A stretch of DNA of 64,000 nucleotides from Candidatus Jordarchaeia archaeon (GCA_029856435.1 JAHQXB010000063.1:27053-91052); one strand, 5' to 3'. Shown: positions 20,560 to 34,086, numbered from the stretch's first letter. The notes: generated from the letters alone by a model not told the origin. Numbers and translations are program-made.

Positions 20560-21930
20560 ATGACACAAACGCAAAAAGGAGAAAAATTTGAAGTCAAAGA
20601 CCTAAAACTAGCACCAAGCGGACGAGCAACAATTGAGTGGGCAGAATCAAGAATGCCCGTGCTCATGCAAATAAGAGAGAGGTTCCGAAAAGAAAAACCG
20701 CTTAAAAACACCATAGTAGGAGCATGCCTCCATGTAACAAAAGAAACAGCAGTTCTTGCAAAAACCCTGAAAGCTGGAGGTGCAGAAGTCTACCTCTGTG
20801 CCTCAAACCCCCTATCAACACAGGACCATGTAGCCGCCGCACTGGTAGAAGAAGGAATAAACACATTCGCCTGGAAAGGCATGGACTACGAAGGCTACTA
20901 CCGAGCAATAGCCAACGTTATTAAGGGAGAACCGAACATCACACTAGACGACGGCGCCGACCTAGTATCAACCTTAATCAAACTCAAAAGAGGAGAAACC
21001 GGCGAGGAAATCAAGGTAGTTAAGAAAATTCTTGGAAGCCGAACAGACTGGGCGGACAAAGTATGGGCCGGAGCCGAGGAGACCACAACGGGCGTAATCC
21101 GCCTTAGAGCCATGGCAAAAGATAACGTGCTACTATACCCAATTATAGCTACAAATGATACCCCCACAAAATGGGAAACATAAACACCCCCCGTGTTTAA
21201 GCCCAAATTTGACAACCTGTGGGGAACTGGGCAAAGCACCATAGACGGCATACTGAGAGCAACAGCAGACCTTATCGCGGGCAAAATTTTTGTAGTCGCA
21301 GGGTATGGCCATTGCGGTAGAGGCGTAGCGCTAAGAGCTAAGGGGCTAGGAGCGAGAAGAGTCATCATATGCGAGATAAATCCACATCGAGCCTTAACAG
21401 CCGCCTTAGAGGGTATGGAAGTAATGCCCATGAGGGAAGCCGCAGAGGTGGGAGACATTTTCGTAACCGCCACAGGATGCAAGAACGTCATAAATGCAGA
21501 ACATATGAAAAAGATGAAAAACGGAGCAGTGATGTGTAACACAGGTCACTTTAATGTGGAAATAAATATACCTGACTTGGAGAAAATCAGCGTTAGCAAG
21601 AGAGAGATAAGACCACTAGTCGATGAGTACACACTGGAGGATGGAAGAAAAATCTACCTACTAGCCCAAGGCAGGCTTGTGAATCTAGCATGTGCTGAGG
21701 GACACCCAAGCGAAGTTATGGACATGAGCTTTTCTGATCAGGCTTTAGCTGTGGAGTGGATTGTTAAGAATAGGGATAAGCTGTCTGGGATGGGTAGTGT
21801 GGTTTTGGATATTCCTGAAGAGATTGATAGGACTGTTGCAGAATTGAAGTGTAAGGCTATGGGTCTTAGATTAGATGTTTTGACCCCTGAGCAGGAAGCT
21901 TATTTGTCGGGCTGGGCTGAAGGAACCTAG
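20560..21930 (+). CDS. ahcY: S-adenosylhomocysteine hydrolase, spliced join(20560..21177,21208..21930), 446 aa
   Basis: [27 protein letters not shown] in part 1; [37 protein letters not shown] in part 2. Removing 30 nt restores [11 protein letters not shown]. Confidence 0.95.
21178..21207 (+). other. BHB-type intron in ahcY mRNA (30 nt, in-frame TAA)
   Basis: Central helix UGGG/CCCA; bulges AA|A and AA|U; inner stem C(A)UAAACAC/GUGUUU(A)G; outer AA/UU; spliced TGG GAA TTT GAC. Confidence 0.9.
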
Positions 21931-22611: not shown

Positions 22612-23730
22612 ATGGATACTGAGGAAAAGGTTCAGCGTGTCTTGCGTGGCTTGAGTGAGGTTATTACTGTTGAGGATTTGCGCAATTTGTTTGAGGTAGA
22701 TAACCACCCTAAGGCTTACATAGGTGTTGAGCCTTCTGGATAAACCTTTTAGGCTTTCTAGGGTTCCAGAATATTTCATTTGGGCTGGGTGGTTTGGGCC
22801 TGGAAGGTTCAGGATTTGGTTCTTTGTGATGTGGATATGCATGTTCTCGAAGCGACTTGGCATGCTAAGATTAATGACAAGTTTGGTGGAAACATGGATA
22901 CCATACACACCTGTGCAAAGTATATTGAGCACTGTTTACAAGCGTTGGGTGTAGATATTGGTAGGGTTCGTTTTCCAAAGGCTGAGGATCTTATGGATAG
23001 TTTGGATTATTGGGCCACAGTGATAAACATTGCTAAAAACACTACGCTGGCACGTATTAAGAGAGCTATGAGTATTATGGGCCGCAAAGTAGACGATGCT
23101 GAATCGGATTATTCAAAAACGCTTTATCCTTGCATACAAGTGGCTGACATCTTATATGCTGGTTTTAAGCTGTGTCTGGGTGGGACTGACCAGAGAAGAG
23201 CTCACATATTGGCGAGGGAGTTGGCTCCTAAGTTCGGCTTGGATTGGAAGCCGGTAGCGATTCACACTCCTCTCCTCATAGGCTTGGAGGGATTATCGAG
23301 GATGGAGGTTGAAGGTGTGAATGAGGATGTTTTAATGGAGGCCAAGATGTCGAAATCCAAACCTCAAACAGCAATTTTTATACATGATAAGCCAGAGGAA
23401 ATCAGGAGTAAAATCTCTGCTGCCTTTTGCCCACCTAAACAGGTAGAATTCAATCCAATAATTGAAATAAATAGGCTTCTTCTTTTTTCCAGAGAAGGTT
23501 TCATTCTTCATGTGGAACGTGAGGAAAAATTTGGAGGGGATGTAGATTTTGAGAGCTTTGATGAATTGAAATCTGCCTACAGCGCCGGTAATCTCCATCC
23601 TCTGGACTTGAAACGGGCTACTGCAGAGGCACTCATTGCACTGCTGAAAAATGTTAGACAACATTTTGAAAAGAATAGTGAAGCCCGTAACCTTTTAGAA
23701 ACATTAAAAAAGGCTACAGTGACCCGGTAA
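22612..23730 (+). CDS. tyrS: Tyrosyl-tRNA synthetase, spliced join(22612..22741,22772..23730), 362 aa
   Basis: GGAGG then ATG at 22612 gives MDTEEKVQRVLRGLSEVIT...AYIGVEPSG; spliced HIGH motif PSGLFHLGW; downstream YPCIQVADI, GGTDQRRAH, KMSKS. Confidence 0.95.
22742..22771 (+). other. BHB-type intron in tyrS mRNA (30 nt; unspliced frame has TAA and two TAG)
   Basis: Central helix CUGG/CCAG; bulges AU|A and AA|U; inner stem AACCUU/AGGGUU; spliced GGA T|TA TTT CAT. Confidence 0.9.
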
Positions 23731-31866: not shown

Positions 31867-32919
31867 ATGTATCTAGAAAACTCTTTAATTTTGGTGAAGC
31901 TTTTGCTAAAGGAAACAATGATTTACGAGAAGCTTGAAAATGACATGGTAAAATGCGGGATCTGTCCTCATCGCTGTTTAATTAAACCCGGAAAGAGAGG
32001 AAAATGTAAAACAAGAGAAAACAGAGAGGGGGTTCTCTACTCCCTTGTTTATTCTTCAATATCTGCGATGGCTAATGATCCCATTGAGAAAAAACCTCTG
32101 TTCCACTTTTATCCGGGTAGCACTGCCTTTTCTATATCAACAGTGGGTTGTACTTTTCATTGTCTCCACTGCCAAAACTGGAGCATCTCTCAAGCAGAGC
32201 CCGAATCTGGCTTAACTAGGGAGTTCCCACCAGAAGAGATTGTTTCAGCAGCTAAGAGAAGTGGTAGCCGTTCCATTGCATATACCTATAATGAGCCCTT
32301 CGTTTTCTACGAATTCGTCTATGATACTGCAAAGATTGCAAAGGAAAACAACATAAAAAATATTCTGGTTACAAATGGATATGCTACACCTGAGGCCATA
32401 GAAAAAATAGCCCCTTTAATAGATGCAGCAAACATTGATGTGAAAGCAATGAGCGAAGAATTTTACAAAGAAGTATGTGGGGCGCGGCTTCAACCAGTCT
32501 TAGACGCCGTGCTCCTCATGAAGGAGAAGGGCATTCATGTAGAAATTACGTATCTGATAATCCCCCAGAAAAATGATAGTGCAGAGGAAATAAAGAGATT
32601 TGTAGAATGGGTTAAGGGTAATTTGGGACTGGATATACCCATCCATTTCTCAAGGTTTTATCCCCATTACAAAATGACAAATCTTAATCCCACCCCAGTT
32701 CAAACAGTCATTAAAGCCAGAGAAATCGGGCAAAAAGCAGGGCTGCACTACGTCTATTGCGGGAATATACCGGGGCAGGGAGAGAACACGTATTGCTACA
32801 ATTGTAACCAATTAATAGTGGGACGATGGGGATACTCAATAGAAGAGTACAAACTTGCCAAAGGCAACACGTGCCCAAACTGCGGAACGAAGATAAACAT
32901 GATTGGAGGAGGGGGATAG
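31867..32919 (+). CDS. amrS: AmmeMemoRadiSam-system radical SAM enzyme
   Basis: CGICPHRC, DPIEKKPLFHFYPG, GCTFHCLHCQNWSISQ, YTYNEP. Confidence 0.92.
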   Translation: MYLENSLILVKLLLKETMIYEKLENDMVKCGICPHRCLIKPGKRGKCKTRENREGVLYSLVYSSISAMANDPIEKKPLFHFYPGSTAFSISTVGCTFHCLHCQNWSISQAEPESGLTREFPPEEIVSAAKRSGSRSIAYTYNEPFVFYEFVYDTAKIAKENNIKNILVTNGYATPEAIEKIAPLIDAANIDVKAMSEEFYKEVCGARLQPVLDAVLLMKEKGIHVEITYLIIPQKNDSAEEIKRFVEWVKGNLGLDIPIHFSRFYPHYKMTNLNPTPVQTVIKAREIGQKAGLHYVYCGNIPGQGENTYCYNCNQLIVGRWGYSIEEYKLAKGNTCPNCGTKINMIGGGG

Positions 32920-32936: not shown

Positions 32937-34086
32937 TTAGGATACTGGACGCCAGATAATTCCTAGTTCATCCGCTGTTTTGTATGCTTCCTCCATTTCG
33001 TGGCTAGTAACCCTTCTACATATGTCTGCATATTCCTTCCTTCTTGGCACCTCGTGTGTTGGGTGATACTGTTCCATTATGTTAACTAAAGCCTTGGGGC
33101 AATTTTTAGCCACCCATTCAAGAACCGGTTTGGTGCAACACTCAATGTGTCCCGGTAAAACTAGGTGCCTTATTATCATGCCAGATGTTCCTGGTTCCAC
33201 AGTTTCATCATAGGCCATTTTATGATTTCTTGAAACAATTTCCCAGTAATTAGAAACTTTACTCAACCTTTCTGCGCATTGATCATTCCCATATTTAAAG
33301 TCGGGGAGCCAGAAATCCATAACGTCTAATAAAAGCTTCATACATTCTTTGGAACAGTACATATTAGAATTCCATAGTTGTACAATGTTTGTTTTAGTTT
33401 CCCTTACGCCCTTTAAAATGTTGTAGGTGTTTGGAGTTGGTTCTCCACCCACATAATTTATGTTTCTTGCACCTTCCCTCTTTAGATCTCTTGAGATTCG
33501 TGCAAGGCTCTCACCCGAAGTTTCTATACCGTTTTTTGGATTTGTGGAAATGTCATAGTTCTGACAAAACACGCATTTAAAAGTGCAACTGGAGAAGAAG
33601 AATGCACCGTAAGAGCCTTAACTCTTAAGCGTTTGTGCCTGAAGGAACTAAAGGGGCCTCTTCTCCAGTATGTATGAATGCTGAGGATACATAAGACTCT
33701 CTGCCAAGTTTACAAAATCCTTTTTCACCCTCCAGTCTATTAGCCCCACACCGTCTTTCACAGAAATGACACTGCGATAGAATCCTTCTTGCTAGTTCCA
33801 CCTTAGCATCTAAATAAGAAATCTTCGGCGAATCAATGTTTCCCAGATCCAGTTCACCTGCATCAATCCGCCTCAAGACACTCCTAAAAACACCACTTAT
33901 TCTATCATGCTCATCCCAAAGCTTGCCCAGCTCCGCATCTAGCTCAACATCTACACCTACTTTTAAAGCTATCATAAACTTAGCATAAAGCCTATCATTG
34001 AATACCTCATAGTACCTCCAAAGCCTCTCACGAACTGTACCGTCATCCCAAACACGGTAAGCATCTGGGCGAATTAGCTTCCACAT
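32937..34086 (-). CDS. pflX: PflX-like radical SAM protein, spliced join(complement 33633..34086, 32937..33601), 372 aa
   Basis: CHFCERRC...HTGEEAPLVPSGT in exon 1; spliced SGTIFFSSCTFKCVFCQNYDIS; DFWLPDFKYG, IRHLVLPGH. Confidence 0.9.
33602..33632 (-). other. BHB-type intron in PflX-like mRNA (31 nt, frameshifting, contains TAA)
   Basis: Central helix GCAC/GUGC; bulges AA|A and AU|U; inner CG/CG plus UAAGAG/CUCUUA; outer AG/CU; spliced ACA A|TC TTC TTC. Confidence 0.9.

Follow-up and report, generated by a model that had tools for sequence, protein, structure and literature searches.

We analyzed a 64,000-nucleotide (nt) stretch of DNA from Candidatus Jordarchaeia archaeon (GCA_029856435.1 JAHQXB010000063.1:27053-91052), here called the window, in which a radical S-adenosylmethionine (SAM) gene on the minus strand is broken by a 31-nt insert at 33602-33632 (reverse complement, ACGCTTAAGAGTTAAGGCTCTTACGGTGCAT). 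The mRNA of this gene is very probably spliced at the two ends of the insert, as an archaeal bulge-helix-bulge (BHB) intron. Removal of exactly these nucleotides joins two open reading frames (ORFs) and restores a conserved isoleucine, and related genomes carry inserts of varying length with the same fold at the same codon.

Reading frames and exact repair of the radical SAM gene

Exon 1 begins with an ATG at 34086 and extends to 33633 (33633-34086, minus strand, as are all positions in this gene), with the 3' end ...CCT TCA GGC ACA A. It encodes a Cys-rich N-terminal domain through ...GEEAPLVPSGT, plus the first base of an Ile codon. Read without splicing, the N-terminal ORF (33625-34086) gives a product of 153 amino acids whose C terminus is ...PSGTNA and a stop, that is, ...GEEAPLVPSGTNA and a stop; this stop is the UAA within the insert at 33627-33625. 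Exon 2 (32937-33601, with its stop at 32937-32939) starts (A)TC TTC TTC and encodes IFFSSCTFKCVFCQN... and the remaining radical SAM core. The C-terminal frame is different from that of exon 1. It reads ...S, stop, GSYGAFFFSSCTFKCVFCQN..., with a UAA of its own inside the insert at 33620-33618, and is open from 33617 only. The C-terminal stretch after the N-terminal ORF is ...GAFFFSSCTFKCVFCQNYD... in this other frame and extends to 32937. Between the two exons lies the putative BHB-type intron, ACGCUUAAGAGUUAAGGCUCUUACGGUGCAU, of 31 nt (33602-33632), which was delimited from the ORFs, the translations, and orthologous inserts at the identical site.

Deleting the 31 nt joins ACA A to TC TTC and gives SGT-I-FFSSC. 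The predicted spliced mRNA has a coding length of 372 codons, with the RNA junction ...GGCACAA joined to UCUUCUUC (in longer form, ...UCAGGCACAA joined to UCUUCUUCUCC...) and the predicted junction peptide ...APLVPSGTIFFSSCTFK. Seventeen Asgard orthologues without an interruption read GT[I]FF and are collinear with the predicted product, ...PSGT-I-FFSSCTFKCVFCQN. When the cut is moved by one base, F or N replaces the conserved Ile, and the sole register that yields Ile is that of the predicted cuts. The CxxxCxxC motif for the [4Fe-4S] cluster and SAM, C-TFK-C-VF-C (33564-33587), begins 5 codons past the junction.

Exon 2 has Pfam matches to Radical_SAM (2.1e-13) and Fer4_12 (1.3e-09), and PF04055 scored 51.2 bits against a gathering cutoff of 29.5, with the CxxxCxxC present. 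The NCBIfam activase models (PflA, NrdG, and similar) gave no match at cutoff; the best, TIGR02493, scored 31 to 33 bits against a cutoff of 231.75, a range that covers exon 2 and one full-length intronless orthologue. These matches place the gene in the radical SAM superfamily and no further, and the name PflX, which an earlier note on this DNA had used, is a label that stays unconfirmed. ARAGORN reported no tRNA gene in the 64-kb window and was of no help with the insert, and Rfam returned no family above its gathering score in the same 64 kb.

Fold, conservation, and covariation of the insert

The local minimum-energy fold around the insert has a 4-bp GCAC/GUGC helix, a 3-nt bulge AAA, an inner hairpin, and AUU left unpaired after GUGC. 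The 5' strand of this central helix (GCAC, 33635-33638) belongs to exon 1, in the codons GGC ACA, and the 3' strand (GUGC, 33604-33607) lies within the intron, as placed by the folds and by covariation. The 5' bulge AAA occupies 33632-33634, with a predicted cut after its second nucleotide, between 33633 and 33632; the 3' bulge AUU occupies 33601-33603, with the corresponding predicted cut between 33602 and 33601. The inner hairpin (33608-33631) pairs CG/CG and then UAAGAGU/GCUCUUA around the loop UAAG, and its stem, 2+7 bp here and 7 to 9 bp in relatives, closes the 5' bulge. By the canonical rule for archaeal splicing endonucleases, each BHB bulge is cut behind its second nucleotide; applied to the fold, the rule gives exactly the boundaries 33602-33632.

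The earlier note, made from the sequence of the window, had placed a 31-nt frameshifting BHB intron here. Both its coordinates and its 31-nt string match exactly, the ORF list and translations bear out its two ORFs in different frames, and the local fold reproduces the GCAC/GUGC helix and the bulges AAA and AUU that it named. It had also held that removal builds an ATC across the junction to give SGT-I, just ahead of the CxxxCxxC of a radical SAM gene, which agrees with the spliced reading, the position of the motif, and the Pfam match given above.

The C-terminal half of the protein served as the query against 41 related genomes; tblastn was then run with both halves, and the junctions were inspected. 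Inserts of 31 nt were present at the same codon in 4 genomes of the same genus, and inserts of 27 or 28 nt were present at that codon in 5 genomes of the second family of the class. The class is represented by 11 genomes in the collection, and all 10 that possess the gene carry the insert; one of these 10 assemblies is a single-contig genome. A metagenome scan added 8 further contigs with an insert at the site, including lengths of 32 and 34 nt, so that the lengths overall are 27, 28, 31, 32, and 34 nt. The resulting frame shifts are 0 (with a stop), 1, or 2, and one cut rule repairs all of them and restores the Ile. In 17 genomes of other Asgard families the gene is uninterrupted and reads ...GEE.P.VPS-GT-I-FF..C...C..CQN. 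Exon 1 is 46 to 96% identical to the N-terminal halves of the orthologues, and exon 2 is 47 to 98% identical to the orthologues.

The earlier note had proposed an alignment with uninterrupted orthologues as a check, and the 17, which are the more distant ones, are collinear with the spliced product. It had counted a break shared by orthologues that lack a BHB as evidence that would speak against splicing. The opposite was found: every orthologue with the break retains the BHB geometry, and the inserts differ in length and show compensatory changes.

The inserts comprise 12 distinct sequence variants. Pairing of the inner stem from the outside in failed for family f1, which has a 2-nt asymmetry, and we used per-sequence folds and a covariance model. 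In the per-sequence folds, every one of the 12 variants folds as ((((...(stem)))))..., and the 5' bulge is 3 nt in all 12 and is either AAA or AAU. The central helix is 100% paired, its sole change being a C to U that retains a G.U pair, and in the inner stem 6 of the 8 pairs have changes on both sides across the variants. In a covariance-model alignment of the 12 variants, a kind of alignment that leans towards the model structure, standard pairs filled 88.2% of the cells, versus 29 to 55% with the partners slid by 1 to 3 columns. The covariation score was reached by none of 500 shuffles and exceeds every slid control. An architecture shared at the same codon by 12 variants, with covariation beyond the controls, is more than chance would produce.

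The exon bases next to the cuts also appear constrained. The synonymous positions in GGC/GGT ACA A and TC, on the two sides of the junction, are fixed in all the intron-bearing variants (12 of 12), and among the 17 intronless orthologues they vary freely. This pattern is suggestive of exon bases that form part of a recognition structure, among variants that are related to one another. The ratio of nonsynonymous to synonymous substitution rates (dN/dS) among intron-bearing genomes was 0.04 to 0.16 over both halves (0.04 to 0.06 for exon 2 and 0.04 to 0.16 for exon 1), with synonymous sites saturated between the deeper pairs in this comparison. By this measure, both halves of the gene are under purifying selection.

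Probable splicing and its alternatives

The genome encodes candidates for both enzymes that splicing would need. Two EndA-family genes (PF01974) scored 108 and 80 bits; their ORFs are on G000:C104 (L111:1178-1753) and G000:C64 (L112:1195-1785). The best PDB matches of one are the catalytic subunits of the heterotetrameric enzymes of Aeropyrum, Sulfolobus, and Pyrobaculum; in the second we did not see the histidine of the catalytic triad by eye. Asgard archaea have been assigned an (alpha-beta)2 EndA with the crenarchaeal loop and a broad specificity for relaxed BHB motifs (PMC5829648), and the two EndA genes appear, from their sequences, to fit this two-subunit, crenarchaeal-like (alpha-beta)2 type. 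For RtcB there is one PF01139 gene (579 bits; G000:C93:302-1636, minus strand; L113), the only RtcB match in the genome, and its 500-codon open frame has one TGA inside it.

We propose that in the pre-mRNA the exon GCAC would pair with the intron GUGC to form the 4-bp central helix, with AAA and AUU as the two 3-nt bulges and the remaining intron as the inner hairpin. The tRNA-splicing endonuclease would then cut after the second nucleotide of each bulge; EndA appears to be a two-subunit, (alpha-beta)2 enzyme that would tolerate relaxed motifs. RtcB would join the exons into one 372-codon mRNA encoding ...PSGT-I-FFSSCTFKCVFCQN....

Several points weigh against splicing. The outer exon-exon helix is 1 to 2 bp, and the 3' bulge is poorly closed: outside it there is only the pair G33639-C33600, plus an A-U pair in most variants. 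Because the outer helix is weak, the motif is best described as a relaxed one (HBh'-like) and not as a strict hBHBh'. Moreover, the minimum of a 111-nt fold prefers the pairing of GGAGAAGAGG with CUUCUUCUCC, together with a shifted inner stem, over GCAC/GUGC. This 12- to 13-bp pairing in the longer fold lies 18 nt away and connects G-E-E codons with F-F-S codons; it is present in intronless orthologues too, and any codon choice for E-E and F-F would pair.

The genome scans also count here. The first combined a 6-bp BHB prefilter with the requirement that splicing open at least 70 codons on each side, and it did not discriminate, with 5074 real matches versus 5398 decoys, a background presumably dominated by neighboring codirectional genes. 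The second added a strict RNAfold shape and compared the canonical cut offset with offsets of +/-1, and it was not enriched at the canonical offset (25 matches versus 29 and 31). Given this lack of enrichment, a loose BHB-like shape alone is no evidence. In the subset with lengths of 28 to 31 nt and A-initial bulges the counts were 5 versus 0 and 0, under a filter chosen after the fact. The strict scan missed the inserts in ahcY and tyrS described below and thus undercounts. We treat the scan as a source of candidates and not as a statistic; four of its candidates (in cbf5, gatE, kae1, and hypD) are confirmed at the sequence level by Pfam continuity across the junction. The anatomy of the insert, its conservation and covariation, the repair of frame and residue, the purifying selection, and the presence of the enzymes were observed, and from these we infer the cleavage and ligation themselves.

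The alternative that survives best keeps the BHB intron and makes its removal conditional, so that retention would give the truncated N-terminal protein and splicing would gate the enzyme. Many housekeeping and RNA-related genes carry such introns (cbf5, kae1, gatE, and tyrS), the RtcB match holds a TGA, and shared control through the activity of EndA and RtcB would be possible. Constitutive splicing, which is usual for tRNA introns, accounts for all of the observations, and we regard conditional removal as rather unlikely.

Translational recoding would leave the mRNA unspliced and have the ribosome bypass the insert, in the style of phage T4 gene 60, or shift frame. In its favor, conservation extends to both halves, which lie in different frames, and the insert has a hairpin directly past the break, as does the T4 gene 60 gap. 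In a test for programmed frameshifting we found no overlap of the frames: the upstream frame ends with its stop at 33627-33625 before the downstream frame opens at 33617, so no single +1 or -1 shift joins them. For a bypass, there are no matching take-off and landing codons (ACA precedes the gap, GCA or UUC follows it, and there is no ACN at the end), and landing off the BHB cut forfeits the conserved Ile. Lengths of 27, 28, 31, 32, and 34 nt would demand different hops, whereas the helix and the 3-nt bulges are what is conserved, and family f2 has no stop for 18 codons past the break. Varying lengths and frames that one cut rule repairs are hard to reconcile with any recoding mechanism, and recoding is very improbable.

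Equally little can be said for a decaying pseudogene or an assembly artifact, under which the gene was lost to a small insertion and is never restored. The gene does present two ORFs and would be labeled broken by annotation pipelines. Yet the insert is present in 10 independent assemblies and 8 metagenome contigs, dN/dS is low in both halves, the gene has no additional lesions, and the insert itself evolves under structural constraint. Nor does the genome have a similar intact paralogue, the next best match being 34% identical. We consider decay or artifact highly implausible.

We give as little credence to a split gene, in which the halves are separate polypeptides that assemble or only the 153-amino-acid N-terminal domain functions. 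The frame of exon 1 stops soon past the junction, and the Cys-rich N-terminal domain could fold alone. Between the downstream-frame stop at 33620-33618 and the first cluster Cys there is no ATG, GTG, or TTG, and the earliest possible start in that frame, GTG at 33572, lies beyond two of the three cluster Cys residues and would remove them, so that a separate C-terminal half would not be viable. The break also falls inside the conserved GTIFF, a segment just ahead of the cluster loop that runs uninterrupted in all intronless orthologues. As for other kinds of element, the presence of a single copy of the intron sequence in the genome makes a mobile repeat unlikely, a size of 31 nt excludes a group I or group II intron, and the stops together with the frame shift exclude an intein.

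For the cbf5 pre-mRNA of Crenarchaeota (Desulfurococcales and Sulfolobales), a BHB intron was reportedly described by Watanabe in 2002 and Yoshinari in 2006. In the literature searched, archaeal pre-mRNA splicing is confirmed only for crenarchaeal cbf5, with introns of 16 to 44 bp, and Yokobori in 2009 wrote of "no confirmation ... for genes other than cbf5" (PMC2738675). The BHB intron proposed for the radical SAM gene would be a further case of the cbf5 type in an archaeal protein gene, with a new host gene in a new lineage. Like the crenarchaeal cbf5 intron, the insert is short, lies inside the coding sequence, adjoins active-site residues, and has a relaxed BHB fold; in both cases the introns are often frame-shifting, the lineage has a heteromeric splicing endonuclease, and gene predictions mistake the intron for a frameshift. 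Unlike in that system, the host is a radical SAM enzyme gene and not the gene of an RNA pseudouridine synthase, the lineage is an Asgard class, the same genome has many other introns of this kind, and splicing is deduced here from sequence comparison.

In Freyarchaeia and Atabeyarchaeia, 92 to 95% of tRNA genes have introns (PMC11291895). Text searches of that paper and of bioRxiv 10.64898/2026.10.13.758758 turned up tRNA introns and none in protein-coding sequences; in the latter, "protein-coding" is used once, for neighboring genes. The insert resembles the noncanonical tRNA introns of Freyarchaeia and Atabeyarchaeia in lineage, in the presumed enzymes (EndA and RtcB), in size range, and in BHB logic. 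It differs from them in that the substrate would be an mRNA and the functional readout is repair of a reading frame.

In HAC1 and XBP1 mRNAs, Ire1 cuts at paired stem-loops, Trl1 in yeast or RtcB in metazoa ligates, and the frame changes. The likeness to the splicing proposed here lies in the cutting of an mRNA by a protein enzyme, joining by a tRNA ligase, and a change of frame. The nuclease there is Ire1, the motif is another one, and the reaction belongs to a regulated stress response; no homology is implied.

If the radical SAM mRNA and others are spliced in this way, apparent pseudogenes and frameshifts in these genomes are probably intact genes, and BHB-aware gene calling is needed, or else Asgard metabolic reconstructions will miss enzymes. 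Were this true of many unrelated Asgard genes, mRNA splicing by protein enzymes would be a regular feature of relatives of the eukaryotes. The radical SAM gene is a clean test case, with a shifted frame, no recoding route, and a 31-nt difference that would be visible by reverse transcription-PCR.

Similar inserts and the neighboring gene

Two further inserts with this architecture are on the plus strand of the window. The one in ahcY (21178-21207) has a UGGG/CCCA helix, bulges AAA and AAU, and an inner stem, and the one in tyrS (22741-22770) has a UGGA/UCCA helix, bulges UAA and GAA, and an inner stem. In cbf5, a 31-nt insert (G000:C73:22783-22813, minus strand) has a CACU/AGUG helix with bulges AGA and AAA. 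Its junction, between GHAGTL and DPKVTG, splits the codon of the catalytic Asp, with the Pfam domain DKCLD in exon 1 and TruB_N (from profile position 17), TruB_C_2, and PUA in exon 2. The crenarchaeal cbf5 intron likewise disrupts the codon of a catalytic residue (PMC2738675). On the same contig, gatE has a 30-nt insert (G000:C73:11339-11368, minus strand), with GatB_N profile positions 2 to 41 and 47 to 276 on its two sides. A 29-nt insert in kae1 (G000:C44:20990-21018, plus strand) separates TsaD profile positions 8 to 61 from 64 to 264, and a 28-nt insert in hypD (G000:C136:1384-1411, minus strand) leaves the HypD profile to run from position 29 in exon 2. The housekeeping genes checked here that appear to be interrupted are those for the radical SAM protein, tyrS, ahcY, cbf5, kae1, gatE, and hypD.

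A second site within the same gene family was found in three genomes (1.3 to 1.4 Mb) of the f3 Asgard family, whose orthologous radical SAM gene is intact at the site described above. This gene holds a 29-nt insert (L025:2122-2150, L026:2122-2150, and L027:2122-2150, all on the minus strand) between Cys2 and Cys3 of the CxxxCxxC, 10 codons downstream of the site in the window. The insert has a GCGU/ACGC helix, bulges AUA and ACU or AAU, and a 7-bp inner stem, and pairing is kept over the three variants via G.U and compensatory changes. Canonical cuts restore C-TFR-C-AY-C-QN. The gene family and the BHB architecture are the same as in the window, whereas the site is another and the sequence is unrelated, so that this is an independent insertion into the same gene in a different class.

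It is conceivable that in several Asgard lineages mRNA splicing by EndA and RtcB is a regular step of gene expression across the genome, with introns as a common gate that ties enzyme output to the activity of the splicing machinery; we put this forward tentatively, as doubtful but worth stating.

On the metagenome contig Ga0180301_10005961 (L092:1464-1516, plus strand), the codon that is interrupted in the window likewise has an insert, of 28 nt, but the inner stem of this insert, GAAUUGAAA/UUUCAAUUC, is unrelated. A quick tree places the host protein beyond the clade of the class and beside a family f9 genome, with an SH-aLRT value of 93 and a long branch. The site may have gained an intron independently here, or the intron may be old and have been lost many times; the placement is tentative.

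We also observed a 28-nt BHB-shaped insert at G000:C24:15011-15038 (minus strand), in a protein without a Pfam match, where the junction lies between ...DPAYG and KYHFDGHR. On the opposite strand from the interrupted gene, its neighbor (31867-32919, plus strand) is a second radical SAM gene, which is AmmeMemoRadiSam-like (weak TIGR04337 similarity for the neighbor family). A second radical SAM gene is at the same relative position in several relatives, as second tblastn matches (L001 to L004, L007, and L008).
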